Shown here piece by piece: positions 5,898 to 42,428 of a stretch of 64,000 bases of DNA. A program made the translations under genes and the position numbers. The notes beneath the pieces are model-generated. The model did not search any database, was not told where the DNA came from, and saw only the letters and a program-made list of their open reading frames with translations. The stretch spans positions 696,265 to 760,264 of the forward strand of contig CAWARO010000006.1 of the NCBI GenBank assembly GCA_963784445.1, in the 5' to 3' direction. Every line of letters begins with the position of its first letter. Position 1 is the stretch's first letter. Source of the stretch: an uncultured Acidimicrobiia bacterium. GTDB lineage: Bacteria > Acidobacteriota > Vicinamibacteria > Vicinamibacterales > UBA2999.

Positions 5898-6560
5898 TCA
5901 AAACGTCACAGTGACGGTAAGGATGAACGTGGGCTTCTCGTCGTCCGGGTTCAAGAAATATCCGGCGAGCCCTAGTTTCTTAAACGAGACGCCTGCGAGC
6001 AGGCCGCGTTGGATATCGCGATCGGTTTGGTAGGCCCGCGTCCGCTCCGTCACCAGGCCGAACCGAAACCACTCAACGGGCGCCAGCGTCAGCTCCGACC
6101 AGTTGTAGAAGAAATTGTCCGAGGAATCGCCGGCGTCGAACACATACTCGCCTTCGCTGTAGAACTCGAGCTTCCACCAGCCTAGTGAGCCTTTGTAGCC
6201 CGGCGCGATGCCGTCGGTGGCACCAAACACGGCGCCGAGCATCGGCGTCAGTTCCCACTCCACCGTTTCACCGCCGCTGAAGTTGTAGCCGACCCACGCC
6301 GAGCCCGTGTCGAGCGCCTCGTAGTTGTAGCGGGCTTCAAGGTGCAGCCAGTCGCGGTCTGCCGTGAACGCGGGCTGCGCGTAGTTGCCGGCATCGGGGA
6401 CGAAGTAGGTGGCGGCAGCGACGGAGAACTCCCACGCCTTTGGGTCGGCTTCCGGCGGCGTTTGCGTGGCCGCGGGAATCGGCACATTGGTCGTGGCCTG
6501 GGCGAAGACGGCGACGTCCATGAGTGCGATCGCTATGAGGAGGCAGGTCAGTGATCGCAC
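5898..6560 (-). CDS. Small outer-membrane beta-barrel protein (hypothetical)
   Basis: GTG start at 6560 gives a signal peptide (VRSLTCLLIAIALMDVAVFAQA). Aromatic-rich beta strands; the C-terminus TVTVTF ends in Phe. The longer ORF up to 7064 overlaps the VIT gene and was rejected. Confidence 0.55.
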   Translation of the reverse strand: MRSLTCLLIAIALMDVAVFAQATTNVPIPAATQTPPEADPKAWEFSVAAATYFVPDAGNYAQPAFTADRDWLHLEARYNYEALDTGSAWVGYNFSGGETVEWELTPMLGAVFGATDGIAPGYKGSLGWWKLEFYSEGEYVFDAGDSSDNFFYNWSELTLAPVEWFRFGLVTERTRAYQTDRDIQRGLLAGVSFKKLGLAGYFLNPDDEKPTFILTVTVTF

Positions 6561-6565
6561 CGTGT

Positions 6566-7216
6566 TTATCCCCCCAGTGCCATCGTCATGCCGACGAGCA
6601 TGGACCCGAGCACCACCATCGCGATGCCAACCAGCCACGGGTGGCGACCGGTCATGCGTCCGAAGACATGGCCTAACACGAACAACATCACGATGGCGAT
6701 GGCATTGGAGGTCCGCAGGGCCGGGCCGGCGTCCGACATGAAGATGAATGGCAACGCCACCGGAAACGTGGAGAGGAACACGAGAACGAACACGCCGAGC
6801 GAACCCAGCCAGTCGTCCTTGCTCAAGCGAGCGCGTGTCGGCGGCGCGGGTAGTTGAATCAGCCGCTTGCGGATCATTTCCAGTTCCGCCGGCTGGAGGA
6901 TCGACGCCACCAGCGGCGGCAACGCGTCCGCAATGCGATCCTGAGCCTCCTGCGGATCGGCGGCCTTGCGCACGGCGTGGAGCGTGATGAGGCCCCGGCC
7001 CTTTTCGGCGAGGACGCCCATCAGGTACAACATCCCATCGATGATGCCCCAGGCGACATTGCACCCGAGCGCGCCGATCAGCATCTCGCGAACATCCTCG
7101 CGGCCGGCCTCGGCCACGCTGAGGGAACCGGTGAACGTGAGGACCATGATCAACCCGAAGAGGACTTCGGAGACACGATCGATCGGGTCGAGGACTCGAG
7201 TGGATGTCATGGTCAC
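6566..7216 (-). CDS. VIT1/CCC1-family (vacuolar iron transporter-like) membrane protein
   Basis: 216 aa, with an N-terminal helix pair, a cytoplasmic helical insert and C-terminal transmembrane helices ending GMTMALGG. The family call is from overall pattern only. Confidence 0.55.
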   Translation of the reverse strand: MTMTSTRVLDPIDRVSEVLFGLIMVLTFTGSLSVAEAGREDVREMLIGALGCNVAWGIIDGMLYLMGVLAEKGRGLITLHAVRKAADPQEAQDRIADALPPLVASILQPAELEMIRKRLIQLPAPPTRARLSKDDWLGSLGVFVLVFLSTFPVALPFIFMSDAGPALRTSNAIAIVMLFVLGHVFGRMTGRHPWLVGIAMVVLGSMLVGMTMALGG

Positions 7217-8310
7217 ACGACTCGCGGTGGCAACATGTAAAGCGTCATGGCGAAGATCGTGTAGACCACCAGCAAGAGCACACCCACGAACCAGGCCGAG
7301 CGCCCGCTGTTGGTCACGAGCGAGGCGCTCATCGCGGCGATGAACATCATCACCACGGCACCGGGCCAGAACTGCAGGTTCATCGGCGTCGGGGCGATCA
7401 CATAACTCAAGAGCACGAGCACCGGCGCGACGAACAGCGCAATCTGCGACGCGCTGCCGAGCGCGATGCCGACGCTCATGTCCAGCCGGTTCTTGCGTGC
7501 CGCCGCGAACGCCGAGGCCATTTCCGCGGCCGCGCCAACGATTGCCACGACGATGAAACCAACGAACGCCGGGCTCATCCCCAGCGTCTCCGCCGCTATC
7601 TGCACTGACTCGACAAAAATGTGGCTGACCATGGCCACCAGCACCGTCACGCCCGCCAGCGTCGCCAGGGCGAGGCCCATCGGGAACATCGACTCGCCGC
7701 CGGCTTCCCCGTGTCCCGCGCTGGCGAACAATTCCTTGTGCGTCTTCAGGGAGAACAACATGCTCAACGCGTACACGACGATGAGCAGGACCGACAGGCC
7801 CACGCTCAACTTCTGGGTGAACTCGGCCCCCGCGACCGAGTCCGCTTGAGACAACGCCGACGGAATCAACAGGCCGACCGTGGCCAGGAACAGCAGGCCC
7901 GCCTGCATGCGGGCGCTGATGCGGTTGAATTCCTGCTCGTGATACTTGAGACCGCCCAGCAACAGCGAGACGCCGAGCATGAACAACGTGTTGGTGACGA
8001 TCGCGCCGGCAACCGACGCCTTCACGAGCACAAATTGCCCGGCCCGCAATGCCGTGACCGCAATCACCAGTTCCGTCAGGTTGCCGAGCGTGGCGTTGAG
8101 CAGGCCGCCAACCGCATCACCAGTCTTGGCCGCCACAGATTCCGTGGCGTGACTGAGCAAGGCCGCTAACGGCACGATCGCCAGGACCGATAGTGCGAAG
8201 AGCAGCGTGTGCGCATCGTGCGCAACTTGCGCGGCGATGAGCACCACGGGCACGAACACCAACAGCCAGAGCAGCTTGTTGTGCTGAATTTCCCTGAATA
8301 ACGGTTTCAT
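7213..8310 (-). CDS. Ca2+/H+ antiporter (CaCA/CAX, ChaA-like)
   Basis: Alpha-repeat motifs GNLTELVIAVTALRAG and GAAAEMASAFAAA, about 11 transmembrane segments. I took the ATG at 8310 (MKPLFREIQ). The stop overlaps the VIT start by 4 nt. Confidence 0.8.
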   Translation of the reverse strand: MKPLFREIQHNKLLWLLVFVPVVLIAAQVAHDAHTLLFALSVLAIVPLAALLSHATESVAAKTGDAVGGLLNATLGNLTELVIAVTALRAGQFVLVKASVAGAIVTNTLFMLGVSLLLGGLKYHEQEFNRISARMQAGLLFLATVGLLIPSALSQADSVAGAEFTQKLSVGLSVLLIVVYALSMLFSLKTHKELFASAGHGEAGGESMFPMGLALATLAGVTVLVAMVSHIFVESVQIAAETLGMSPAFVGFIVVAIVGAAAEMASAFAAARKNRLDMSVGIALGSASQIALFVAPVLVLLSYVIAPTPMNLQFWPGAVVMMFIAAMSASLVTNSGRSAWFVGVLLLVVYTIFAMTLYMLPPRVV

Positions 8311-8327
8311 GGCTCCGCAGGCATCCA

Positions 8328-8342
8328 GCAAGAGGACTGCCA
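8328..8342 (-). promoter_or_regulatory. Candidate sigma-54 promoter for the CAX-VIT-OMP-SulP-PPK2 operon
   Basis: The minus strand reads TGGCAG-tcctc-TTGCT with exact spacing. The GC element lies 18 nt from the ATG at 8310, which implies a very short leader. Confidence 0.45.
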
Positions 8343-8506
8343 CCGATGCGAGACGAATCTCGCGTCCAATACTGAAGAGATTGACACTCACCTGGTCGGC
8401 CTGACTGCCCCTTGTCAGGGGGATCACAGCCTGCCGTCACGGATGCGACGAGCGCTCCCGTACACAATTGCGAGCACCGATTTCCGACCATCGATGTCGT
8501 TGAACA

Positions 8507-8522
8507 CGGCGCTGAATTTGCA
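8507..8522 (+). promoter_or_regulatory. Candidate sigma-54 promoter for the TRIC channel gene
   Basis: CGGCGC-tgaat-TTGCA, with the GC element 25 nt upstream of the ATG at 8546. It lies back-to-back with the 8342 motif. Confidence 0.4.
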
Positions 8523-8545
8523 GCCCGATCAGGTTCTGAGCGACC

Positions 8546-9216
8546 ATGACTGACGCCGTCTTTCAAGTTCCGCCGGCCTTCGATTACCTGGCGACCTTGA
8601 CTTGGGCGTCGAGCGGGGCCTTGGTCGGCATCCGCAAACATTTCGACGTCGTCGGTGTCTTTGTGATCGCGCTGGTCTCCTCAGTGGGGTCCGGCCTGGT
8701 GCGTGACGCCTTATTTCTGCAACGCACGCCCGTCCTCCTGACCGATCCCGTCTACTTGCCGCTCATCGCCGGGACCGTGATCCTCTTCGGTCTGTTCTCG
8801 GGGCCGCTCACGCGCGTGGCCACGGCCGACACGGTGCAAAAGATGATCGATATCATTGACGGCGTCGGGATCCCCATCTTCGCGGTGATCGGGATGCAGC
8901 TCGCCGAAGAGCGCGGCATTCCGGTGACCGGCATCATCTTCATCGGCGTCGTCAACGGCACCGCCGGCGGCTTGCTGCGTGACGTGCTGGTCCGCGACGT
9001 GCCGGCCATCCTGCGGCCGGGTCAGTTCGTGTCACTGTTGCTGCTGTGGCGTGTGTGTCGTTCGTGGCACTGAAGCAGTATGCGGATGTCACCGTCTCGC
9101 AAGCAGCGTGGGCGGCAATCAGCACCTTCTTTGTCCTCCGCGTGCTGACGATCCGCTTCAATTGGACGACCCGCTCGGTGCTGCCGGAATCGCTCGGCGG
9201 CGACCCCGGCGCGTAG
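8546..9216 (+). pseudogene. TRIC/UPF0126 (YadS/YicG-like) cation channel, frameshifted near 9025-9035
   Basis: Two UPF0126 repeats (SGALVGIRKHFDVVGVFVIALVSSVGSGLVRD and IFAVIGMQLAEE...GTAGGLLRD). The last helix (VAAVACVSFVALKQY...RVLTIRFNW) continues in another frame to the TAG at 9214-9216. Confidence 0.7.
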
Positions 9217-9229
9217 CACTCGATTGCGT

Positions 9230-10909
9230 CTATTGCATGAGGACGACGATGACCGGGCCCCAGGCGGTCAAGAGGATGTTCCCGATCGCATACGGCACGG
9301 TGTAACCGAGCACCGGGAGCTTGCTTTGTGATTCGTCCTGGATCGCGCGCAGCGCCGCGGTGATGGTCCCCGCCCCGGCACAGGCGCCCAGCAAGATGAC
9401 GGGGTTCATCTTCAACACGTGGTAGCCGAATAGCAGCGACACCAGGTGCGGCAGGATTGCCACGATGAACGCCACAAACACCAGGCTCGGGCCGGTCTCG
9501 CGGAGGCCAGACACAAATGTCGGACCGGCGTTCAATCCGACGATGCCGATGAACACCGCCAGGCCAACGGTGTCGAAGATCCAGAGCGCCGGCTCGGGGA
9601 TTCTGCCAAACGTCGGACGCACGGAGCGCAGCCAGCCGAACACCAGGCCCATGATCAGCGCGCCTCCACTCGCGGTCAGCGTGATCGGCAGACCGCCGAT
9701 ATCGAGCGTCAACAGCCCGACGAGACCGCCGACGACGATCCCCAGGCCGAGGAACACGATGTCGGATTCACTCGAGGGACGTTCGATGTAGCCCAGCTCG
9801 CGTCCGACGCGTTCCACGTCACGCTGGGCGCCGGCCACGCGGAGCAAGTCCCCTCGATTGATGATCGTTTCGGCATCGAAAGGAATTTCCTCACCGCCAC
9901 GGATCAACTTGACCAGGACGACACCACGCCCGTGCCGCTCGGCCAGCACCGACAGTTTCTGGTCCTCTGCTTCTCGCTTCGTGACGACGACATCGAGCGC
10001 CGCCATTGGGAAGTCGAGCAATTCTGGATCTTCACGTTCGTCGAGAAGCGGCAGGGATCCGCTGAGCAGCACCCTGCGCCGTGCCCCGATCGCCAGCACA
10101 TCGCCCGACTGCAGCACGGTCGCCGGCGCGGCGTCGAGCAGTTCGGTCCCGCGGCGGATGCGTTCCACGAACACGCGCTCGGGATTCGCGGCCCGCTCGA
10201 AATCCGCCACGGTCCGACCCGCGGCGGGGTCGGCGAGCCGGTACGCACGGATGCTCCATTCCTTATAGGCCAGGCGCTCTTCGTGATCCGGCCCGACGCC
10301 GTCCGCCGACATCTCGGTCGCCAGTTTTCGGCTCTCCGCCTTCATGTCAATGCGAAGGATGCGGGGACCCATGACCGAGAGAAACCAGACGACGAAGCCA
10401 GTGCCCACGAGGTAACTGACCGCATAGGCCACGGGAATGTTGTTCTTCAGTCTCGTCTTCTCGGCCTCCGGCAGATCGAGCCGGTCGATGGTGTCGCTCG
10501 CGGTGCCGATCACCGTCGATTCGGTGAACGCGCCGGCCATCAGGCCGGCCGCGGTCCCGGTGTCGTAGTTGAGCAGCTTCGCCGCCACCAGTGTCGTCAC
10601 GAGACTCGTCACGCAGAGGACCACCGTCAGCGCGACCTGGGGCAGCGCATTTTTTTTCAGGCCGCGAAAGAACTGCGGTCCAACCTTGTAGCCCGTGGCA
10701 AACAGGAACAGCGAGAAGAAGACCGACTTGACCGTCGCGTCGACCTTGATGTCGAGTTGTCCGATGAGCACACCCGCGATGAGCGTACCCAGGACGTTTC
10801 CGAACTTGAAGGACCCGATCTTGATCCGGCCGATCACGAAGCCGATGGCGAGCGTCAGGAAGATCGCCAGCTCGGGGTGTTCGCGAAGCGAGGTCAGCAA
10901 GTAGCGCAT
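9230..10909 (-). CDS. AAE-family transporter (AspT/YidE/YbjL-type aspartate:alanine exchanger-like), copy 1
   Basis: [37 protein letters not shown]. Two transmembrane halves flank two TrkA_C-like soluble domains. The ATG at 10909 was chosen. Confidence 0.8.
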   Translation of the reverse strand: MRYLLTSLREHPELAIFLTLAIGFVIGRIKIGSFKFGNVLGTLIAGVLIGQLDIKVDATVKSVFFSLFLFATGYKVGPQFFRGLKKNALPQVALTVVLCVTSLVTTLVAAKLLNYDTGTAAGLMAGAFTESTVIGTASDTIDRLDLPEAEKTRLKNNIPVAYAVSYLVGTGFVVWFLSVMGPRILRIDMKAESRKLATEMSADGVGPDHEERLAYKEWSIRAYRLADPAAGRTVADFERAANPERVFVERIRRGTELLDAAPATVLQSGDVLAIGARRRVLLSGSLPLLDEREDPELLDFPMAALDVVVTKREAEDQKLSVLAERHGRGVVLVKLIRGGEEIPFDAETIINRGDLLRVAGAQRDVERVGRELGYIERPSSESDIVFLGLGIVVGGLVGLLTLDIGGLPITLTASGGALIMGLVFGWLRSVRPTFGRIPEPALWIFDTVGLAVFIGIVGLNAGPTFVSGLRETGPSLVFVAFIVAILPHLVSLLFGYHVLKMNPVILLGACAGAGTITAALRAIQDESQSKLPVLGYTVPYAIGNILLTAWGPVIVVLMQ

Positions 10910-11037
10910 GGCGGGGTCCTCAACCCTGGCCGGACATCGAGTGGTTTCGGTTACCGAGGGGACGTGCCCGGGTCGCTCACGTGTTGAGACGGCCCGGTCA
11001 GGAGATACCCCTGACCGGGCCATGACTCAGCTGCTCG

Positions 11038-12681
11038 TTACGTCTTGCCGACGGGCTCTGCCAGCCCGTCTTGCTTGGCGGTCTTGCCGGTGTCCTTTTC
11101 GTACTGGTCACGGTAGATGCGCGCAATCGCGCGCAGCGCCCGGCCGATGTCGTCGTACACGTGATCGTTCAGGTTGGCGAACGAGATGCGCACCGACCAG
11201 TCCGGCGCCGCAAAGCCGCTGCCGTTGAGCAACACGATGCCGTGGTCCTGGGCCAGCCGGAACACGAGGTCGAGCGGGTGGATGTTCTTCTTCATCCACG
11301 CCACCGCTTCGTCGCCGAGGTTCTTGCGGGCGAAGAACTCGAAGTCGATCAGGCCGTAGTAGTAATCGTAGTACTCGTTCTCGCCGAGCTCGATGCCCAG
11401 CCCTTCAATCGTGGCCTCGAAGCGCTTCTTGCAGATGCCCAGGGTGGCTTTCTGGTAATCCTTCCTGGTGTCCATCAGCTCGCTGATCGAGAACAGCGAC
11501 ATCATCACTTGTTGCGGCAGCGACAGGCCCGCGGTGTGGTTCAACGCGATGTCGCGGCTGTCGGCGACGATGCGGTCGATGAAGGCGAACTCGCGCGGCT
11601 TCAGGGTGAGCCCGCCATAACGCTTGTCGAGCAGCTTCTTGATCGGCTCGGGGTGGTTGGCGATCATCTCGTCGAAGATGTTGTCCTCGTGCACGGCGAT
11701 CGTGCCCAGGCGCCAGCCAGTGCAGCCGAAGTACTTGCTGTAGGAGTAGACGCCAATGGTGTTCTTCGGGTACACGCCCATCAGCGAACGGAAGCCGGGC
11801 ACGAAGGTGCCATACACATCGTCGGTCAGCAGGATCAGCTCCGGCCGCTTCTTCAGCACCTCGCCAATCTTGTCGATGGTGGCGGGAGACATCGCCACCG
11901 CGTACGGATTGCCGGGATTGACGACGAAGAACGCCTTGATCTTCGGATCGAGCAGCTTCTCGAGCTCCGCGTCCGGATACTGGAACTTGTGATCCTGCTT
12001 CGCGTGCACGGGCACGTAATGGAGGTCGTAGTCTTCGAGGTGCGCCATCTCCAGGTACGGCGTGAAGATTGGCACGCCCATCGCGATCGTGTCGCCCTGG
12101 TTCAGGAGGCGATTGCTCTTCAGCGACTTGAAGATGTAGCACATGGCGGCGGTGCCGCCCTCGACCGCGTAGATCTTGAACTGGCCCTTCGGGTACGGCT
12201 CGCCGCACATCGCCCACTTCAGGTACTCGTGGACGATCTGTTCGTTGTGCACCAGCATGCGGTCGGGCACCGGGTAGTGGTCGCCGATGATCGAGTGGAC
12301 GAGCTCGTGGATGAACTGGTCGGCATCGAAGCCGAACTTCTTCACCGTCCACGGCGCCATCCGTTGCAGGAACGACGCGCCCGGCATGTCCTGGTGCTTC
12401 GTGAGCCAGGCGTCGAGCCGCTCGGCAACGCCTTTCGCCTTCGGCATGCCGCCCACGCCGGGCGGCAGATCGAAGACCCGCTTGCTTTCGGTGATGGCGA
12501 ACTGCCCGAGCAGGAAGAAGGCCTCGCGCGGTTCGGTGGCGACCCAGTTCGGATTGCCGCGTCCCGCATTCAGGAAGGTGAGCGACGAGTCCTCGGCGGA
12601 CTTCATGGCGACCTTGGCGACGAAGTCCTTGATCTCGAACGGGCCCAGCTTCTGGTACTGTTTGTAATCCAGGTGTTCCAT
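11038..12681 (-). CDS. asdA: Aspartate 4-decarboxylase (aspartate beta-decarboxylase, PLP-dependent)
   Basis: N-terminal GPFEIKDFV...FLNAGRGNPNWVATEPREAFFLLGQFA is characteristic of AsdA/AspD. About 547 aa. The ATG at 12681 is preceded by GGAGGA-N7. Confidence 0.85.
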   Translation of the reverse strand: MEHLDYKQYQKLGPFEIKDFVAKVAMKSAEDSSLTFLNAGRGNPNWVATEPREAFFLLGQFAITESKRVFDLPPGVGGMPKAKGVAERLDAWLTKHQDMPGASFLQRMAPWTVKKFGFDADQFIHELVHSIIGDHYPVPDRMLVHNEQIVHEYLKWAMCGEPYPKGQFKIYAVEGGTAAMCYIFKSLKSNRLLNQGDTIAMGVPIFTPYLEMAHLEDYDLHYVPVHAKQDHKFQYPDAELEKLLDPKIKAFFVVNPGNPYAVAMSPATIDKIGEVLKKRPELILLTDDVYGTFVPGFRSLMGVYPKNTIGVYSYSKYFGCTGWRLGTIAVHEDNIFDEMIANHPEPIKKLLDKRYGGLTLKPREFAFIDRIVADSRDIALNHTAGLSLPQQVMMSLFSISELMDTRKDYQKATLGICKKRFEATIEGLGIELGENEYYDYYYGLIDFEFFARKNLGDEAVAWMKKNIHPLDLVFRLAQDHGIVLLNGSGFAAPDWSVRISFANLNDHVYDDIGRALRAIARIYRDQYEKDTGKTAKQDGLAEPVGKT

Positions 12682-12721
12682 TGCTTTGTCCTCCAGCGTC
12701 AACAATTGCGAGCAGGCCGCG

Positions 12722-14476
12722 TTACGAGAGCAGGATGATCAGGACCATGCCCCAGATCGTCAGCAACGTGTTGCCGACGGCATACGTCACGGTATAGCCG
12801 AGCGCCGGCACCTGGCTCTTGGCCTGATCGCACACCAGACCGAGTGATGCCGTCGTCGTGCGCGAGCCCGACACGATGCCGAGCGTGAGCGCGTCGTGGA
12901 AACGGAACACGTATTTCGCCACGAACATGCCGAGCACCAACGGCACCGTCGTCGCGAGCGCGCCCCACAAGAACAGGCCTGCGCCTTGCGTCCTCAGGCC
13001 ATTCACGAAGCCAGGGCCGGCGGAGATGCCGACGATGGCGATGAAGATGTTGAGGCCGACCGAGTTCATGAACCAGACGGTCGGCGTCGGCACGCGTCCG
13101 AATGACGGGCGGACGGATCGCAGCCACCCGCCGATGATCCCCGCGACCAGCGCGCCGCCGGCGGTCGACAGTGTCAGCGGTACGCCGCCAACGTTGAGGA
13201 CGATCGCGCCGAACAGGGCGCCGACCGTGACGAACAAGCCGACGAACGCCATGTCGGCGACGTCGGTCGCGCGATCGGGGACACCCAGCAGCTTGATGGC
13301 TTTGTTGGTGTCCTGCGTGCGTCCGACAATCGTGAACAGATCGCCGCGGTTGATCGTGGTGGTCGGCAAGATGGGGATGTCCGTCGCGGTCGCGCCGCGC
13401 GTGATCTTGCGCAGGAAGACGCCGCGCGTCTCCGGCATCTGCACCAGGTCGACCAGCGTCTTGCCGTCGATCGCCTTGTTGCTGACCAGGACGTCGACGC
13501 CCTCGACCGGCATCGCCAGCAGCTCCCGATCCTCGACCTCGAGCGCGTTCGGTCCTAGTAACGACACGAGCGCGTCGCGGGAGCCCGCGACCGCCACGAC
13601 GTCGTTCTCGGCCAGAACGGTATCCGCGGTGGCCTCCTCGATCTTCCCGTTGCGGCGGATACGCAGGACGAACAGGCGTGTCGCCGGCGCCACCGATGTT
13701 TTCTCGAGGACTTGCACGCCGCCACCGGCCTGCGCGGCGAGTTGCCGTTGCGCCACCATCGACTCAGCCTCGACGACGCTCAATCCGGCGGCCGCTCCGC
13801 CAGGCAGAACTCGGTATGCCCGCACTTCCCAGCGCCGCCACGCCGTGCCGGGGCCGCCAAGTTCCTTCACGCCGCCTTGCTGCTGTTCGTAGTCCTTGCA
13901 CGCCGCCTCGAGATTGATGCCGAGCAGCTTGGGGCCCAGCACCGCGATGATGACGGCCGAGCCCATCGTGCCGAACATGTAGGTGACCGCGTACGCGACC
14001 GGCATGGAGTCGATCAGGGCCTTGGCCTGCTCGGCGGCCATGCCCGCCCGATTGATGGCGTCGGTCGACAGGCCCATCGCGGCGGAGATCGTTTGCGAGC
14101 CCGAGTAGAGCCCGGCCGCATAGCCGAGGTCGTAGCCGGCCAGCCTTGCGATCGCGAAGGGGACCAGCAGGCAGAAGAGGCACTGCACCACGGAAAAGAG
14201 CGCCTGTGGTACGCCGTCGCGCGCAATGCCGCGAACGAACTGCGGCCCAACGCCGTAACCGACTGCGAACAGGAACATCAGGAACACCGTCGCCTTGAGC
14301 GGCTGTGCGATGGTGATCCCGATCTGCCCGATCAGGACGCCGGCCAGGAGCGTCGCGGTGACGGAGCCCAGGCCGATGCCCTTGAACGTGAACTTGCCAA
14401 AGTAGTAGCCAATGGCAAGCGTGAGGAAGATCGCAATCTCCGGATACTGCTTCAGCGTCGCAAAGAACCAATCCAT
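12722..14476 (-). CDS. AAE-family transporter (AspT/YidE/YbjL-type), copy 2
   Basis: [37 protein letters not shown], with the same two-half plus TrkA_C architecture as the gene at 9230..10909. Confidence 0.8.
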
Positions 14477-14488
14477 GATGATCTGCTC

Positions 14489-16906
14489 CTAGCTGCCTGC
14501 CAGCGCGGGTGCCGGCTTAGCCTTCTCCGACTTGTCCGACTTCTCCGACTTCGCCGCCTTCCCCTCCAGCGCGCTGGGACTAATGAGCTTCAGTCCCAGG
14601 GTGGCGTCGTAGCCGTGGATCTCTTTCACGTCCAGCTTGCGCATGAACTCGATCGTGTCGGCCTTGATCACCTGTCCCGGCACCATGATCGGGAAGCCTG
14701 GCGGGTACGGGATCACGAAGTGCGCCGAGACCAGCGGCGGCCCGGACTGGATCCGCTTGTCGATCTCGGGGCTCATCAGCTTGATATGCTCGCAGCCGTC
14801 GTGGTCGTAGGCCATGTAGAACGCGGTGCGCATGTCGCCCTCGAGCGTCGAGCCCTTCGGGTCGTCGCGGAACCGATCGTGGAAGTGGCTGAAGTTGGGC
14901 AAGTTCGGAACGTCCTCGACCAGCGACTTCACCCGCGCCGCAAATGCCGTGCGAGCCGCATCACCGCCGCTCTTGAGACGCTGCTCGATCTCATTGGAGA
15001 TCTCGACGAGCACCTTGAGCAGGTTGGCCACGTCGCTGCGAGTGTTGTTGATGTTGGTCTGCAGCAGGATCGAGTTGCGCGAGGTCTTGTTGAGCTGAAT
15101 CTCGTACTCGTTGGCGAGCAGGCCCTTGAACTGGGTGCCGTCGTAGCCGGCGGTCCCGCACATCAGGGTCAGCCGCGTCGGGTCGAGGATGAACTCATCC
15201 TCACGGAATGCTTTCGCCGCGTCCGCCCAGGTGGCGCCACCCTCGGTGTAGCTCTTGAGACCGGACTGCCGGAACTCGGCCGGCACCATCTGCTCGACGT
15301 CCAGGACCTTGAAGTACTTGGACACGAGCGGATGCGTGTTGACCGCGACGCGGATCTCGATCGCGAGCTGGATGGCCTGCATGACCATCTCGTAGCCTTC
15401 CAGTTCCATCTGGCGGCGCGCCACGTCGAGCGACGCGATGATCTGCTGGTTCGGCGACGTCGAGGCGTGCGTGAACACCGCTTCCTTGAAAGCCTGTTCG
15501 TGGCGGTGGTAATCCTCGTCAGCGACCAGCACCATCGATCCCTGGCGGAGCGCCGACATCGACTTGTGCGTCGAATTCGTCTGGTAAATGCGCAGCTTGG
15601 CCTTGCGCGGATCGGGAATCAGCCGCGTGTCGAGCACCCGCGCGTCCTTCGGATCGAGATCGGCGCCGAGCTGCTTCTCCTGCGCGAGGTATCGCTCCAG
15701 ATAGGCGGGGTCGGCGAAGGCCTCTTTCAGGGCCGCGCGCGCGCCCATCGCCGTGCGCGGCCGGTAGAGCGGTGACCAGCGAGCGAAACCGAACCAGGCT
15801 TCGTCCCACAGGAAGATCAGGTCCGGCTTGATCGCCAGGCACTCTTCCATCACGCGCCGCACGTCGTAGACGTGGCCGTCGAAGGTGCAGTTGGTCAGCG
15901 TGACCGTCTTCACCTTGTGGAGCCGGCCCGCCGCCTTGAGATCGAGCAAGCGCCTTCTTGACGTTGCGCAACGGCACGGCGCCGTACATCGAGTACGCCA
16001 CCATCGGGAAGGCCTCGACGTAGTAGGGCTGTGCGCCCGCGAGCACCATGCCGTAGTGGTGCGACTTGTGGCAGTTGCGATCGGCAATGACGATGTCGCC
16101 GGGCTCGAGGAGCGCCTGGTGGACCATCTTGTTGGAGGTCGACGTGCCGTTGGTCACGAAGAACACGCGATCGGCGCCGAAGGCGCGCGCGGCGGCATCC
16201 TGGGCCTTCTTGATGTTGCCGGTCGGCTCGAGCAGGCTGTCCAGTCCGCCGGAAGTAGCCGACGATTCCGCGAGGAACAGGTTGGCCCCGTAGAACTCGC
16301 CCATGTCGCGGATCCAGTTCGACTTGAAGATCGACTTGCCGCGCGCCACCGGCAGCGCGTGGAACGTGCCGACCGGCTTCGCGGCGTACTTCTTCAGGTT
16401 GTTGAAGAACGGCGTGTCGTTGCGCTCGGCCACGCCGGAGAGGATCGATAAGTGAATCTCGAGCGGCTCCTCGACCTCGTAGAAGACGCGGCGGATGCCG
16501 GCCGCGGCCGGGTCCGAGATGATCGCGTCGGGCTTCTGGTCGGCGAGCAGGATGATGTCGAGCTCGGGCCGGAAGCCCTTAATGAGTTTCGCCAGCATCG
16601 ACGCCGTCGGCGCCGGCCGCGCGGTTCTTCAGACTCCGCGGACAGCCGTGACGACAGCAGGCTCTTGAGCAGCGGCACGTCGCGCGAGGATTCGTAGGGG
16701 AAGCCGTCGTAGATCACGACCGACTCGAGGTTGGTGTTGAGGATCACGGCGAGCGCCGCGTCTTCGAACGAGCCGACGAACACGGGCTCGTAGACGAACT
16801 CGTCCTCGGGACGGCGCAGCTTCCTGATCTGCTGGGCGTGTGTGGCCCAGCGGGAGGGCGGCGTGTTCGTGACGAACAACACCTCGAAGTACGGGTCTCG
16901 CGGCAC
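14489..16906 (-). pseudogene. Large Orn/Lys/Arg decarboxylase family enzyme (PLP-dependent), split by at least 2 frameshifts (about 15953 and 16600-16640)
   Basis: Three colinear ORFs. ORF 16394..16906 holds the wing domain (YFEVLFVTN). ORF 15519..16598 holds FHALPVARGKS and FFVTNGTSTSNK. ORF 14489..16087 holds NSTHKS (PLP-binding Lys) and IPYPPGFPIMVPG. The junction NVKK|RLLDLK is restored by dropping one G. Confidence 0.8.
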
Positions 16907-16969
16907 CCTCGACCTTCGCGGCCGGCATCGTCGCGCTCCGGCGTGGCCCCGTCGTCTTCCGGCTCGAAT

Positions 16970-17296
16970 TCACCGGCATCGCTGCGATAGCTCCGCGACA
17001 TCAACGCCGAGGAGACGCGCTGCACCAGCCGCGCCGTGCCCATCGCGTCGCCCGCCGGCCGCACGCTGCTTGATCGCGTTCATCACCCGGGCGCCCGGGT
17101 AGGCCTGGAAATCCTCCAGGGGCAGAAGCGCAGTGAGCGCTGCGTTGCACGCAGCCTGCGAGCCCGCGTCGCCGCGGCTGGTTGGGCTCGAGGCCCACGC
17201 CTGCGCGGCCCGGGCAAGGTCGCGCCACAAATCGAGGCGCGCAGCCACTGCCGAAAAAAAGTGGTCGAGTCTGGGTGCCGTAGAACTCTTTGCCAT
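16970..17296 (-). CDS. Hypothetical 108-aa ORF between the porin and the decarboxylase (could be an N-terminal extension of the decarboxylase)
   Basis: ATG at 17296 (MAKSSTAPRLDHFF...). No family recognised. Open frames b and c continue toward the decarboxylase start. Confidence 0.3.
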   Translation of the reverse strand: MAKSSTAPRLDHFFSAVAARLDLWRDLARAAQAWASSPTSRGDAGSQAACNAALTALLPLEDFQAYPGARVMNAIKQRAAGGRRDGHGAAGAARLLGVDVAELSQRCR

Positions 17297-17313
17297 GTGC
17301 TGCTCCTGGATTG

Positions 17314-18475
17314 CTAGGACGGGAAGTTGAAGCGAATTGCGAACTGGATGCGATTGGCCGTGCCCTCTTCGCCACTGGCGACCTCGCGGCGGCCGTAGAG
17401 ATACTCGACGCCGGCCCACGCCCGGTCGGGCAGGAACCAGTAGAGGAGATTGACGGCGCCGTAGTTGAGTTCCTTGTTGAACAGGGACGGGTAGTACCGG
17501 CTCGTCCGGCGTCGTCGTCACGCTGAAGACCGCATTCGAGGTCACTCGCGATGACCAGTAGTGCTCGTAGCCGCCCATGAACGCGGTGAGGCCCACGGGC
17601 TGCAGCTCGCCGTTGCTGTCAGGGATCGCGGTCACGCCGCCGCGGTAACGGCCGACGCCGTCGCCGAAGGTGATTTGCCCGTAGGCGTAATCACGGCCGA
17701 ACGTCTTGACCCTGCCCGACAAGAGGCTGCCCCACAGCGAGACGTCGTCAGGCTCACCAACCGTCGGGCGGAAGCGCGCGCGGCCGAGAAAGGCGGAAGC
17801 AAAGACGTGCCCGCGCCCCCCTTCGAACTTGACCCGCGTGGCCAGGTCCGGCATCGAGTACTCGGCCCTGCCCGGCACGTCCGCCGGTGTGGTGATCGAT
17901 GACTTGTTGTCCTCGACCGCCACGGACCATGACGTCTGGGCGCCGAGCTTCGCCGTGAAGCGCGCCTGCGCCTGCCGGATTGAGGGGAAGGCCATCGGCG
18001 ACTCGAAGTCGATCGTGTTGGGGAAATTCGCGTCGTCCACGAAAGTGGACCAGGCCTGTCCCGCCATCAGGCCCTTGTAGCTCCCAAAGGCCTGGCGCAG
18101 GCGTATCACATTGCCGCTGCCGTAGAAGTCGGTTTCCAGGTACATCCGTAACTCGCTGCCCTCGACCGGGCCGCGCATGTCGAGAGTCAAGCGCGTCTCG
18201 CGGGCATGAACCTGCGAGTTGGTGCCCTCGCTCCCATCAACCGGGATGGTGCGCGGGTCGAAGCTGTCTTCGGAGGTAATCGGATCGAAGTCCCGGATCA
18301 CATCGAGCTTGATTCGTCCTCCGGGCTTGAAGACGAACGATCCGATCCTGAAGCCATCGAATTCCGGTTGCGCGGCTGGCGTCTGCGCGTCGGCCGAGCC
18401 GATCGCGACCAGGAGAACCGTCGCTGCCACGACCCCCCTCAACACACCGATCCTTGTTGCTTGAACCCGTCGCAT
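17314..18475 (-). pseudogene. DcaP-like outer-membrane porin, with a +1 frameshift near 17497
   Basis: Signal peptide MRRVQATRIGVLRGVVAATVLLVAIGSADAQ, then RETRLTLDMRG, YLETDFYG and LMAGQAWSTFVD. The C-terminal strands (YYPSLFNKELNYGAVNLLYWF...IRFNFPS*) are in the +1 frame after GAGCCG-G-TAC. Confidence 0.7.
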
Positions 18476-18519
18476 CGCCAACTCCTTCACCCTTCTGGGG
18501 GTTGTTTCGAGACCATTGA

Positions 18520-18534
18520 GCAATTCGACTGCCA
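18520..18534 (-). promoter_or_regulatory. Candidate sigma-54 promoter for the porin-decarboxylase-AspT-AsdA-AspT operon
   Basis: The minus strand reads TGGCAG-tcgaa-TTGCT. The predicted leader is about 33 nt and contains GAAGGAG-N6-ATG (18475). Confidence 0.55.
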
Positions 18535-18702
18535 TCGCCGCGGGCGAATCTGGGCCCAAAAGACTCAATGAAAAGAGGTCGCCCGAAGTGTCTTTACCGG
18601 CCCTCGTCAGCGCCCTCACAACATGCCGTCACGGACCAGGGCAGCGGAGAACTGCCGACATCGCGGGAAGCCAGCTTTGGGCCCATCCGCGCTCGCTAGG
18701 CG

Positions 18703-18718
18703 CGGCTCCGAACTTGCA
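18703..18718 (+). promoter_or_regulatory. Candidate sigma-54 promoter for nrfHA
   Basis: CGGCTC-cgaac-TTGCA with exact spacing. The GC element is only 15 nt from the ATG at 18732, so the mRNA would be nearly leaderless, which lowers my confidence. Confidence 0.35.
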
Positions 18719-18731
18719 ATGAGCCGCCCGA

Positions 18732-19220
18732 ATGAATGGGTCCCACGCGGCGCTGGCGGTTGCCGTCCTGGCGCTCGGAGTGGCGCTCGGGCTCGGCTCG
18801 TACACGTTTGCCTATGCGCGCGGCTGGTCCTACATGACCGACGATCCCCGCGCGTGTGCGAACTGCCACGTGATGAACGAGCAATACGACGGCTGGATCA
18901 AGAGCAGCCATCGCTCGGTCGCGGTCTGCAATGACTGTCACGTGCCCCACAGCATCGTCGGCAAATACGTGACGAAGGGGACCAACGGCTTCTGGCACTC
19001 CTACTACTTCACGACCGGCACGTTCCCCGAGCCCATTCGCGCGCTGCCGAAGAGCCGGAAGATCGCCGAGGCCAACTGCCGCCGCTGCCACGAGCCGATC
19101 GTCCAGGCGATGGGCACGCCCTCACATTCCGGTTCGACGCGACATCTCCTGTATTCGTTGTCACGGGTCGGTGGGCCATCTGGAACTTCTTTCGACCAAC
19201 GTCGCCGATTCGACGAGGTG
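18732..19220 (+). pseudogene. nrfH: NrfH, tetrahaem NapC/NirT-type quinol dehydrogenase subunit of cytochrome c nitrite reductase, with a +1 frameshift near 19115-19135
   Basis: Transmembrane helix followed by CANCH, CNDCH and CRRCH in frame. The fourth haem motif CIRCH (RDISCIRCHGSVGH) is in the +1 frame, which ends at the TGA at 19218-19220. Confidence 0.8.
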
Positions 19221-19223
19221 AAC

Positions 19224-20645
19224 CGTGTCCGACCAGAAACCAAGGGGAATGCGCGGGTGGAGTCGGAGCGCTGTGCTGACCGTCGCCATCGTCGACGGCG
19301 CTCGGCACCGCGGCGATCGCGGCCCTGCTCGTCAACATCCTGGAGAAGAAGGGCGAAGCACAGAACTCGTTCTTTCGCGTCGTCGAGTTGACGGACGACA
19401 CTGACGATCCGGCGATCTGGGGCAAGAACTTTCCGCTGCAATACGACGGCTACCTGCGCACCGTCGATCAGCAACGAACGCGCTACGGCGGCAGTGAAGC
19501 CATGCCGCGGACGCCAACGGAAGCCGACCCGCGCTCGATCGTGGCGCAGTCGCGCCTCGACGAGGACCCCCGGCTGAAGACCATGTGGGCGGGCTACGCC
19601 TTCGCCACGGATTTCCGCAAGAAGCGCGGTCACGCATACATGCTCGAGGACCAGAGCTTCACCGAGCGCGTGCAGCACTTCAAGCAGCCGGGCACCTGCA
19701 TCCACTGTCACGCGTCGGTGTACGTGCCCTACAAGAAGGCCGGGAACGGTGACTTGATCAAGGGCTTCGAACACTTCAACCAGATGCCGTATGCGGAAGC
19801 GCGCAAGTCCTTCACCCATCCGGTGGCGTGCATCGACTGTCACTCACCCGACACCATGGCACTGCGCGTCACCCGGCCAGGTTTCCTCGAGGGCATTCGC
19901 GCCCTGAAGGCCGGCGAAGGTGTTCAGGATTACGACGTGAACACGATGGCGACGCGGCAGGAGATGCGCGGCTTTGTCTGTGGCCAATGTCACGTCGAGT
20001 ACTACTTCAAAGGTGCGGAGAAGCGGCTCACCTATCCGTGGGCCAAGGGCCTGAAGGTCGAACAGATCTACGAGGTACTACAAGGAGGTGGGCTTCACCG
20101 ACTGGACCCACGCCGAGACCGGAGCGTCGAACCTAAAGGCGCAGCATCCCGAGTTCGAGATGTGGAACCAGGGCATTCACGCGCGCTCAGGTGTCACCTG
20201 CTCCGACTGCCACATGCCCTACATGCGGGAGGGCGCCCAGAAGATCACCGACCATCACGTGCGGAGCCCGCTGCTGAACATCAACCGCGCCTGCCAGACG
20301 TGTCACAAGTGGCCCGAGGAGGAATTGCGCGGTCGCGTGGAAGCGATACAGCAGCGCACCGTCGCGCTCCGGAACCGGGGAATGGATGCGCTGATGGCGC
20401 TGGTCGCCGACATCAAGAGCGCCAAGGCCGCGGGAACGACGGGTGCCGCGATGACCGCCGCGCTCGAATTTCAGCGGCATGGCCAGTTTTATCTCGACTT
20501 CGTCGAGTCGGAGAACTCGAACGGCTTCCACGCGCCACAGGAATCGGCGCGCATTCTGGGAGAAGCCATCGACTACCTGCGGCAGGGGCAGTTGGCGTTG
20601 CGGCCGTCGCACGCGCCGGCGGCGCCATCCCCCGGCCAGCGCTGA
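19224..20645 (+). pseudogene. nrfA: NrfA, pentahaem cytochrome c nitrite reductase (ammonia-forming), with 2 frameshifts (about 19290 and 20074)
   Basis: Five CxxCH motifs (CIHCH, CIDCH, CGQCH, CSDCH, CQTCH). The first haem is CxxCH rather than CxxCK, as in Campylobacter-type NrfA. The junction QIYE-(G)[10 protein letters not shown] and the N-terminal transmembrane helix are in shifted frames. GTG at 19224 follows GAGG-N6. Confidence 0.85.
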
Positions 20646-20671
20646 CAGCGGAGAATCTGTCTTCGCGAGCG

Positions 20672-21577
20672 CTAGCGCAGCCAGGCGAAGTTGTAGCCGG
20701 CGGCGATCGCGGTGAAGTCCGCGCCGATCGTCGTGTAAGCGCCGCGACTCACCGACACCCGAATGGCCTGGCGACGTGTCAGCCCCTTTGAGAACGTCGC
20801 CCCGATGCGCGAGTTGGTCTGGAGGTCGAGGTTGCGGTTCCCGCCGATTGTCGTTTGTCCGCCCCTGTAGAAGTTGGCGTCGGCGGCGAGCCACATCGCC
20901 TGTGTGAACTTGTAGGTGAGATGGACTTGCGTTGCGAGGATGGCGTCCTGCTCCCGCGTGCGGCCGCCCAAAAAATCCGTATTATCGGTAAACAGCCACA
21001 CGCCCGCCATCACTTCCACGACCCACTTGCCGTTCGTGCGCGCGAAGCCGAGCTCGGGCTTGAACGACCATCGATTGGTGCCGAGGTTGATCAGCTGTGC
21101 TGAATCGTATTGTCCGAGCGGCGGCGCCACCGTGAGGCTGACGCCGACAATGGTGCGCCACTGGTACGACGCGTACTCTTTGGGCGTCATGGCCGGCGCG
21201 CCGTAGAGATTGACCGCGAACTTTAGCCTCGGATCGCCCTGTCCGAATCGGCCGACCTCGGCGAACTCACCGAGGTACAACCCCTCGAGGTGGCCGGCCA
21301 CAATCGGCACCATCAAGCTGGCGTTGGCCGATCGTCCGGCCACCGCGAACGAACCCGCGAACGCCAGCGCCGTCGTGTTGATCGTGGCACTGGCTTCATC
21401 AATGGGGGCGCTGGGGTCGAACGCGAGGTCACCCCAGTTGATGCTGTTGGCGACCGTGACAATGTTCAGGCCTTTGGGGAGGGGCCAGTACGCGCCAGGC
21501 TCGAGCTCCTGCGCCGTCGCGCCGACGGGAAAAAGCAGGGCTGCGGCCACCACGAGCGCCGCGGAGTGCCAGCTCAA
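20672..21577 (-). CDS. Outer-membrane channel of the MetA-pathway (phenol degradation)-like family
   Basis: Signal peptide, then LEPGAYWPLPKG, RWSFKPELGF and a C-terminal beta-strand (AAGYNFAWLR). Pattern-based family call. The start (TTG at 21577 or a downstream GTG) is uncertain. Confidence 0.6.
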   Translation of the reverse strand: MSWHSAALVVAAALLFPVGATAQELEPGAYWPLPKGLNIVTVANSINWGDLAFDPSAPIDEASATINTTALAFAGSFAVAGRSANASLMVPIVAGHLEGLYLGEFAEVGRFGQGDPRLKFAVNLYGAPAMTPKEYASYQWRTIVGVSLTVAPPLGQYDSAQLINLGTNRWSFKPELGFARTNGKWVVEVMAGVWLFTDNTDFLGGRTREQDAILATQVHLTYKFTQAMWLAADANFYRGGQTTIGGNRNLDLQTNSRIGATFSKGLTRRQAIRVSVSRGAYTTIGADFTAIAAGYNFAWLR

Positions 21578-21933
21578 TCGGGTTCAACCGTGGCGTGCGG
21601 GCGCAACCAGTAAGCCTTGGGACGCAGCTCGCCCAGCACATGCGTTCCGGAGCGGCCCAACCCGCTCCGCCGGAACTCGGCGAACGATTCGCGATCGCGC
21701 CACTCGACCAGGCTGACAACGCTCTCGCCGTCTTCGCTCAGGAAGACGCGGCCGCCGACAAACCCGGGCATGCTCCTGAGCGTGGCTTCCGCCATCCGCA
21801 GCAGCGTGTCGGCCTGGCCGACCTGTGCGGCCGCGGTCGACGGGTAGATCACGAGCGCGACGAACGGCTCTCCAGAGTCCACGTGTTCTCTCTTTGATGA
21901 ATCGGGAAACGATTCAGCGGGCATCATCATCAT
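21574..21933 (-). CDS. Antibiotic-biosynthesis-monooxygenase (ABM, ferredoxin-like fold) domain protein
   Basis: 119 aa with FVALVIY...MPGFVGGRVFLSEDGESVVSLVEWRDRESFAEF. The start forms an ATGA overlap with the tkt stop. Confidence 0.6.
   Translation of the reverse strand: MMMMPAESFPDSSKREHVDSGEPFVALVIYPSTAAAQVGQADTLLRMAEATLRSMPGFVGGRVFLSEDGESVVSLVEWRDRESFAEFRRSGLGRSGTHVLGELRPKAYWLRPHATVEPD

Positions 21934-23989: not shown

Positions 23990-23993
<4 letters not shown>
21930..23993 (-). CDS. tkt: Transketolase
   Basis: Motifs AINTIRTLSMDAVQAANSGHPG and GDGCLMEGV (ThDP-binding motif), plus the full-length C-terminal domain. The start forms an ATGA overlap with the upstream gene. Confidence 0.9.
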
Positions 23994-26708
<2,715 letters not shown>

Positions 26709-42386: not shown

Positions 42387-42428
42387 AAGTAACCTCGTGC
42401 AAAGCATGCGTTCGTAGTGAATTTGCCC

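Follow-up and report, generated by a model that had tools for sequence, protein, structure and literature searches.

In a 64,000-nt stretch of contig CAWARO010000006.1 (hereafter, the window), we found a five-gene minus-strand cluster that probably constitutes an operon in which two decarboxylation-antiport modules of the precursor/product type, both acting on acidic amino acids, are combined with an outer-membrane channel. The window has a G+C content of 63–67%, and its run of long minus-strand open reading frames (ORFs) spans positions 9230–18619. In the order of transcription, the genes encode a DcaP-family porin (17314..18475; 386 aa after repair of frameshifts), a long-form pyridoxal 5'-phosphate (PLP) decarboxylase of the Orn/Lys/Arg fold (14489..17296; 933 aa after repair), an exchanger of the AAE family designated AspT2 (12722..14476; 584 aa), the aspartate 4-decarboxylase AsdA (11038..12681; 547 aa) and a second AAE exchanger designated AspT1 (9230..10909; 559 aa), and the intergenic gaps are, in the same order, 17, 12, 40 and 128 nt. 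All five proteins belong to the families named here, and profile searches identified AspT1, AsdA and AspT2 as three intact genes. A preceding interpretation of the same DNA made without database searches (hereafter, the sequence-only reading) had described a minus-strand string of two decarboxylases and two AAE exchangers, and the profile scores confirmed both the families and their order. The string is more than a chance arrangement, as the same order is kept in dozens of genomes.

According to the mechanism that we propose, the DcaP-family porin would let L-aspartate and L-glutamate pass the outer membrane, and the two AAE exchangers would import the monoanionic amino acid and export the electroneutral decarboxylation product. 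AsdA would convert aspartate to alanine and CO2, and the long-form enzyme, which resembles Rv2531c of Mycobacterium tuberculosis, would convert glutamate to γ-aminobutyric acid (GABA) and CO2. Each turnover would use one cytoplasmic proton and carry net negative charge inward, and the resulting membrane potential and pH gradient would serve energy conservation and acid tolerance. Two substrate/product exchange cycles in one operon had already been suggested in the sequence-only reading; this is still the best interpretation, is more coherent with a glutamate-type second enzyme, and is supported by the family scores, the conserved gene order, the adjacency of decarboxylase and AAE genes, and the conserved binding residues. 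More tentatively, and short of calling it probable, we suggest that an Rv2531c-type decarboxylase with an adjacent AAE exchanger represents an unrecognized and widespread decarboxylation-antiport system that exchanges glutamate, or another acidic amino acid, for an amine. Such a system would be functionally analogous to GadB/GadC although assembled from unrelated families, and it would stand in tandem with AsdA/AspT in many soil bacteria, be equipped with a porin in Acidobacteriota, and provide proton-motive force and acid protection. If this is true, part of the 'AspT' equivalog family acquires a new substrate pair.

Families of the five gene products

We compared the predicted products with profile models and with proteins of known structure. 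The AsdA ORF extends over positions 11038–12705, and its start was set at 12681 from a GGAGGA ribosome-binding site and from the alignments of relatives. The product scored 739 bits against TIGR03801 (cut-off 435) and 750 bits against NF006755 (cut-off 321), and it aligned with AsdA of P. dacunhae (PDB 2zy2) with an E value of 1.8e-151, with the motifs NAGRGNPN, (N/H)YPVP and SKYFG kept. These motifs comprise the PLP-binding lysine and the N-terminal arginine motif of the solved enzymes. The sequence-only reading had treated the presence of AsdA-specific residues as decisive for this assignment; with the equivalog cut-offs passed and the motifs of 2zy2 conserved, the protein is a genuine family member, for which conversion of aspartate to alanine is predicted.

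The AspT protein of Tetragenococcus halophilus catalyzes electrogenic Asp:Ala exchange, and both exchangers in the window were assigned to the same type. Against TIGR03802 ('aspartate-alanine antiporter', cut-off 547), AspT1 scored 638 bits and AspT2 608 bits, and each protein contained two Asp-Al_Ex stretches and two TrkA_C stretches. The sequence-only reading had named YidE and YbjL as the relatives from which the exchangers needed to be distinguished. Against models of the YidE/YbjL type, AspT1 and AspT2 scored 173 and 151 bits (NF003007, cut-off 449) and 330 and 266 bits (NF003440, cut-off 645), respectively; by profile scores, both exchangers therefore pass the AspT equivalog and fall far below the YidE/YbjL-type cut-offs. 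The AspT1 ORF is open over positions 9230–11023, and its likely start is the ATG at 10909, because a GAGGA ribosome-binding site precedes it and because relatives align only from residue 35–41. In comparison with the structures of T. halophilus AspT, AspT1 scored 242 bits (8xw5, E 1.6e-70) and AspT2 scored 159 bits (8y1x). The two exchangers share approximately 40% identity with each other and 27–34% with T. halophilus AspT, to which AspT1 is nearer.

The conserved residues that bind L-aspartate in T. halophilus AspT are T130, S132, Y167 and T496 (PMC12462496), and all four are retained in AspT1 and AspT2 alike (T. halophilus AspT numbering). Two positions of the pocket differ: residue 131 (Q in T. 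halophilus AspT) is Glu in AspT1 and Ile in AspT2, and residue 495 (D in T. halophilus AspT) is Gly in AspT1 and Arg in AspT2. In addition, S498 is replaced by T in both AspT1 and AspT2. We accordingly classify both proteins as putative AspT-type exchangers, for which electrogenic Asp(1-):Ala(0) exchange is predicted. The AAE family also includes succinate and glutamate exporters (PMC9527358).

In the sequence as found, two overlapping ORFs carry the two halves of the Orn/Lys/Arg decarboxylase major domain. The repaired protein scored 239 bits against the Pfam model OKR_DC_1, no Pfam model matched the 292 residues that precede this major domain, and all four domains aligned with the PDB entries 9n0n and 9n0o (residues 19–911 on 25–904, E 7e-229), which represent a 'probable amino acid decarboxylase' of 933–947 aa (947 aa for chain 9n0n), Rv2531c of M. 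tuberculosis. Identity to Rv2531c was 45%. A cryo-EM study from 2025 described an extra N-terminal four-helix bundle and a receiver-like domain in Rv2531c (PMC12329521), and in 2026 it was reported, based on deletion, isotope tracing and reconstitution, that the enzyme converts L-glutamate to GABA and does not act on lysine, ornithine or arginine (PMC13506015). The activity on glutamate had a K0.5 of 509 mM and a Hill number of 4 and required Mg2+, and in an rv2531c deletion mutant GABA fell by 84% and was no longer labelled from glutamate, whereas the other amino acids showed no change that was both significant and reproducible (PMC13506015). Rv2531c has been described as a cytoplasmic GABA-shunt enzyme, and a transporter or the genomic neighbourhood is mentioned in neither of the two papers (PMC13506015, PMC12329521). 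We found that H405, K406, the PLP lysine K570, R576, T606 and N731 are identical in the window decarboxylase and Rv2531c and invariant in an alignment of four sequences. R718 of Rv2531c, which has been called distal (PMC13506015), is replaced by K in the window decarboxylase, so that the positive charge is preserved.

The names of the Pfam and NCBIfam models would indicate a basic-amino-acid decarboxylase, and this candidate was dropped in view of the full-length match to Rv2531c, the one characterized member of the long-form subfamily, together with the characterization of that enzyme. The sequence-only reading, which had named an Orn/Lys/Arg-family decarboxylase, was right about the fold but probably not about a basic amino acid as the substrate. 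From the sequence comparison, the window enzyme is probably an acidic-amino-acid decarboxylase with glutamate as its substrate. In addition, an acidic substrate suits an anion-exchanging AAE protein and an anion-selective porin better, which also disfavours a basic substrate for the second enzyme.

The porin at the head of the operon, already described as DcaP-like in the sequence-only reading, scored above the threshold of the Pfam family PF19577 (62.7 bits after repair and 40.7 bits as found, cut-off 27) and covered positions 72–410 of the 410 positions of the profile. The repaired gene (18475..17314) encodes a signal peptide (...GSADA/QT) and the C-terminal end ...RFNFPS. Profile positions 1–71 were unmatched, and the barrel match begins only approximately 21 residues after the cleavage site of the signal peptide; in other words, the protein has no N-terminal coiled coil. 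Intact orthologous ORFs of approximately 425–450 codons were present in six related loci (L003, L004, L007, L010, L053 and L057). Characterized DcaP porins prefer carboxylic acids (bioRxiv 10.1101/2025.07.02.662759 and 10.1101/306035), and we infer that the window porin may admit acidic amino acids through the outer membrane. A 549-aa 'porin' ORF at 16970–18619 was rejected as a gene, as it represents a frameshift fusion of the porin and the N-terminus of the decarboxylase.

Distribution of the cassette and exchanger pairing

We examined the conservation of the gene order in two sets of loci. The AsdA-anchored set comprised 70 loci with close AsdA relatives, for which one genome per species was scanned, and the decarboxylase-anchored set comprised the 80 loci most similar to the query, whose proportions are biased to window-like sequences. 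In the AsdA-anchored set, an AspT2-type gene lay directly upstream of asdA in approximately 65 of the 70 loci, and a long-form decarboxylase gene lay directly upstream of the AspT2-type gene in approximately 51. An AspT1-type gene was located downstream of asdA, either adjacent to it or 1.4–2.5 kb off, and a DcaP-like porin headed the cluster in 13 loci. In the decarboxylase-anchored set, 68 loci had adequate flanks; an AAE gene was directly adjacent to the decarboxylase gene on the same strand in 58 of these, and AsdA was found nearby in 34.

The gene order of the window was also observed in Bosea caraganae (L114) and a Rhizobiales isolate (L119). Rhizobium spp. exhibited the order AsdA-AspT2-decarboxylase-AAE, and the decarboxylase-AAE pair alone was present in Acinetobacter calcoaceticus, Comamonas kerstersii, Alcaligenes endophyticus and Acetobacter. 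Between AsdA and AspT1, the version in Verrucomicrobia/Chthoniobacterales contains an OprD-family porin, and the beta- and gammaproteobacterial versions contain a lipoprotein and a dicarboxylate-type permease of the DASS family (Na_sulph_symp) (examples of these inserts are L030, 11648–13141; L055, 12221–13816; and L020, 11721–13695). It seems that the recruitment of an outer-membrane channel was an independent event. The architecture described in the sequence-only reading therefore holds, but it belongs to a widespread cassette that is not special to this genome and that also occurs in cultured Bosea and Rhizobium. Literature searches for a decarboxylase-AAE-AsdA-AAE cluster found no description.

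Synteny beyond the cassette, which involves nrfHA at one end and a Ca2+/H+ exchanger gene at the opposite end, was observed only in metagenome-assembled genomes (MAGs) of Acidobacteriota. The transketolase of the window (21930–24095, minus strand) was closest to the same Acidobacteriota MAGs (84–88% identity), and those related loci that bear taxon labels are from Vicinamibacterales. The host is best regarded as an acidobacterium from soil that resembles Vicinamibacteria. Identities of 80–83% between AsdA proteins across phyla were initially considered as proof of horizontal transfer, and this interpretation was withdrawn after a control with transketolase, which showed 75–81% full-length identity to genomes labelled as other phyla, including Nitrosomonas isolates (L151–L230). 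Since transketolase identity is also high across phyla, a high cross-phylum identity is not special to the AsdA cassette here.

We further considered which exchanger serves which decarboxylase. In the operon, an exchanger gene comes after each of the two decarboxylase genes, an order that points to the pairs AsdA-AspT1 and long-form decarboxylase-AspT2, and the greater similarity of AspT1 to T. halophilus AspT also points to AsdA-AspT1. Two distant AAE clades whose genes lie right after the decarboxylase gene have in common that residue 131 is hydrophobic and residue 495 is Arg, which points to decarboxylase-AspT2. One is the clade containing AspT2 (the T2 clade), and the other, with 13 members, comes from loci such as those of Bradyrhizobium and Neoroseomonas and is approximately 30% identical to AspT1 and AspT2 (L097–L099, L103, L108, L109, L112, L127, L132 and L136). 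T2-clade genes also adjoin the long-form decarboxylase gene where AsdA is absent. However, decarboxylase-free loci carry AspT2 beside AsdA and have no AspT1, which points to AsdA-AspT2. Among loci with adequate flanks, which are phylogenetically non-independent, the decarboxylase and AspT1 occurred together in 43, the decarboxylase alone in 8, AspT1 alone in 0 and neither in 6. A one-to-one assignment of exchangers to decarboxylases was dropped, because the co-occurrence, the clade context and the residue signatures disagree. AspT2 may accept both substrate pairs.

Promoter motif, expression and reading frames

A sigma-54-type –24/–12 motif (TGGCAG-N5-TTGCT) with the canonical GG/GC spacing, TGGCAGTCGAATTGCT, is located at 18534..18519 on the minus strand, 43 nt upstream of the porin ATG at 18475. 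In the window alone, the number of such motifs was not significant (3 matches versus 2.0 expected). Among 12 close loci with a porin, 7 carried a similar motif ahead of the porin gene, against a background of 0.031 per 380 nt; of 37 porin-less loci, 1 had such a motif. Since the window count is at the level of chance, it is only the recurrence in relatives that supports a sigma-54 promoter. Accordingly, of the 'strong' sigma-54 motif on which the sequence-only reading had relied, its position ahead of the porin and its presence in relatives stand, and its strength as a single motif does not. Control of the operon by sigma-54 may be a lineage-specific feature.

A second sigma-54-like motif, TGGCAGTCCTCTTGCT, occurs at 8327–8342 on the minus strand and shares 13 of 16 positions with the porin motif. 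The likely ATG of the Ca2+/H+ exchanger gene (8310) follows after just 17 nt, and the motif is probably too near to this ATG to leave room for a leader with the GGAG ribosome-binding site. An Rfam scan of positions 8000–19500 yielded only a chance-level match. We counted 8 terminator-like sites, compared with 6.7 expected, and no sigma-70 promoter-like sites.

Soil metatranscriptomes contained contigs of high depth that were at least 88% identical to AsdA, to AspT2 and to the catalytic portion of the decarboxylase, and one contig crossed the AspT2/AsdA junction; AspT1 and the porin were scarcely covered. These contigs represent mixed related populations and possibly include DNA. Many soil members of the Acidobacteriota, Proteobacteria, Verrucomicrobiota and Methylomirabilota carry the cassette, and transcripts of its homologues occur in soils. 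It may thus help soil bacteria to conserve energy and to tolerate acid when they use amino acids.

We compared the reading frames of the porin and the decarboxylase with those of the closest loci of the AsdA-anchored set, in which the decarboxylase forms a single frame of approximately 930–970 codons and the porin is separate. All distant relatives have the conserved coding stretch at 17341..16622 in the frame of the catalytic domain, and in the window this stretch switches frame repeatedly. A MAFFT alignment with nine close loci located seven extra single bases over 15950..17498 (minus strand), one at approximately 17498 in the porin and the others at approximately 17050, 16931, 16892, 16633, 16600 and 15950 in the decarboxylase, and none of these insertions lies within a homopolymer. 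Intact decarboxylase orthologues of approximately 930 aa were found in L010, L016, L017, L053 and L057. A 116-aa ORF at 16629–16979 with no family match, which the sequence-only reading had counted as a small gene of the operon, was rejected, as it lies in the wrong frame relative to distant loci and shows +1 insertions relative to the nine close relatives; it is an out-of-frame stretch within the N-terminal region of the decarboxylase. The divergent genes nrfH (NapC/NirT family) and nrfA (cytochrome c552 nitrite reductase), at 18732–20791 on the plus strand, also seem to be both broken, with three more +1 insertions at 19136, 19293 and 20071 in comparison with L002, L003 and L070.

We then examined public sequencing runs. 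The same strain was not found in these runs (the top share of 31-letter words was 0.27), and the frameshifts were compared with near relatives. In Illumina-derived soil-metagenome contigs that share 97–98% identity with the window, the insertions at 15949–51, 16600, 16633 and 17497 are absent, and metatranscriptome contigs lack those at 15949/50, 16600, 16633 and 16931. Short-read depth peaks at 15769–16473. The cluster of insertions looks like a local consensus-quality problem, perhaps in a region where co-occurring populations share near-identical sequence. Elsewhere in the window, two overlapping ORFs on the same strand at 5898–7216 (minus strand) switch codon phase at approximately 6540, and the C-terminal part of a VIT1-family domain ends the upstream one; a scan of G+C by codon position and the Pfam match suggest that a VIT-family gene is probably frameshifted here as well. 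In many related MAG loci from long-read assemblies (L065, L067, L068, L070 and other MFD loci), AsdA, AspT and the decarboxylase were recovered in several tblastn pieces, and indel errors seem common in such assemblies.

Competing explanations and relation to known systems

Several findings weigh against the proposed two-module operon. As the sequence stands, the porin and decarboxylase frames are broken and only the Asp/Ala half is intact. The K0.5 of Rv2531c for glutamate is very high and the window enzyme is 55% divergent from it, so that its substrate could differ. The evidence on exchanger-enzyme pairing conflicts, with co-occurrence on one side and gene order, similarity and residue signature on the other. 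With regard to regulation, none of the 7 Terriglobia loci with a more distant porin carries a sigma-54-like motif, and there is no sigma-54 activator gene adjacent to the operon. The sole activator in the window (40761–42407, minus strand; Sigma54_activat, 236 bits, with HTH_8 and a GAFTGA motif) is 22 kb away, and no GAFTGA protein was found in the flanks of 13 related loci.

The broken frames could indicate that the cassette is decaying in this strain, in which case the porin and decarboxylase genes would be true pseudogenes and the AspT2-AsdA-AspT1 part alone would work. Within the operon, the seven frameshifting insertions are indeed confined to the porin and the decarboxylase, the 5.2 kb of AspT1, AsdA and AspT2 contains no frame-breaking lesion, and six loci (L008, L011, L013, L019, L024 and L041) naturally lack both the decarboxylase and the porin and retain AspT2-AsdA only. 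However, the ten lesions of the region lie outside homopolymers and are all +1, whereas natural decay would mix in deletions; they fall in 4.1 kb (15950–20071) over two transcription units, all relatives are free of them, and their extension into nrfH/nrfA shows that the cluster tracks position and not a gene. The repaired decarboxylase protein is still 93–95% identical to its closest relatives, the same as AsdA, the closely similar short-read DNA and RNA contigs are without the extra bases, and a further probable frameshift at approximately 6540 lies outside the region. We thus consider decay rather unlikely and assembly error the likelier cause, and the frameshifts should not be annotated as pseudogenes, nor the small ORF as a gene, without a check of the reads.

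A different possibility retains both antiport modules and assigns the long-form decarboxylase a substrate other than glutamate, for example aspartate, which alpha-decarboxylation would turn into beta-alanine, or a further amino acid of the acidic or neutral kind. The K0.5 of 509 mM leaves room for a better substrate, the identity to Rv2531c is only 45% with R718 replaced by K, and the enzyme is embedded in an aspartate-handling cluster in which both exchangers score as AspT. Nevertheless, the residues proposed to contact the glutamate carboxylates (K406, T606, R576 and N731) are conserved, and deletion of rv2531c affected GABA and its labelling from glutamate but changed no other amino acid reproducibly and significantly; this alternative is therefore unlikely in our view. 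It is also conceivable that the cluster is nutritional, importing acidic amino acids and exporting products, with alanine and GABA entering central metabolism via the GABA shunt, a role that was proposed for Rv2531c in M. tuberculosis (PMC13506015). The succinate and glutamate exporters in the AAE family (PMC9527358) and the DASS permease in the beta- and gammaproteobacterial versions are compatible with nutrition. By contrast, an exchanger-family gene directly beside the decarboxylase, as in 58 of the 68 loci, is the hallmark of precursor/product antiport. No gene for GABA aminotransferase or succinic-semialdehyde dehydrogenase was seen in the operon itself, although annotation for these genes did not extend to the flanks of the relatives. 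We consider a purely nutritional function quite unlikely. Two antiport modules, with glutamate as the probable substrate of the second enzyme, remain our preferred interpretation.

We compared this proposed operon with known systems. The component families are known, and the principle of decarboxylation-coupled precursor/product antiport is classical. The AspD(AsdA)/AspT system of T. halophilus consists of the same two families, with the decarboxylase gene followed by the exchanger gene, as in AsdA-AspT1; the window cluster differs in its diderm host, the porin in the operon, two divergent exchangers, a second unrelated decarboxylase and possibly a sigma-54 promoter. In E. coli, GadB and GadC form a proton-consuming acid-resistance system of glutamate decarboxylase and Glu:GABA exchanger. 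The proposed decarboxylation-antiport logic is the same, but the components are non-homologous: GadB is a group II enzyme of fold-type I and GadC belongs to the APC family, whereas the window combines an Orn/Lys/Arg fold with an AAE protein. The likeness to Rv2531c comprises the four-domain full-length alignment at 45% identity and the conservation of the PLP lysine and the proposed substrate residues. However, the two papers on Rv2531c name no transporter partner, whereas the window gene and its counterparts in the 58 loci adjoin an AAE gene, and the window copy is frameshifted and carries the change of R718 to K. The barrel of the porin matches the Pfam DcaP family, as does Acinetobacter baumannii DcaP, from which it differs in having no N-terminal coiled coil and in its association with genes for the decarboxylation of amino acids.

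The systematic linkage of the long-form decarboxylase and AAE genes, their tandem with AsdA/AspT and the recruitment of a porin seem to be undescribed. The long-form decarboxylase family was de-orphaned in 2025–26 only as a GABA-shunt enzyme of M. tuberculosis, and the adjacency to AAE genes, often with AsdA alongside, points to precursor/product antiport as a different main role. The adjacency also points to AAE transporters whose substrate pair is as yet unassigned. With cultured carriers such as Bosea caraganae, Rhizobium spp. and Acinetobacter calcoaceticus, it can be tested directly what the Rv2531c family does physiologically and which substrates the AAE exchangers handle.

Beyond the downstream end of the operon, a plus-strand gene at 8546..9073, convergent with AspT1, encodes a UPF0126/'glycine transporter' membrane protein (PF03458, 99.6 bits). 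A homologue was located within 10 kb of asdA in 19 of the 70 AsdA-anchored loci, in many cases as the next gene behind the AspT1-type gene and in the same orientation, and this protein may serve as an accessory small-solute channel of the system.

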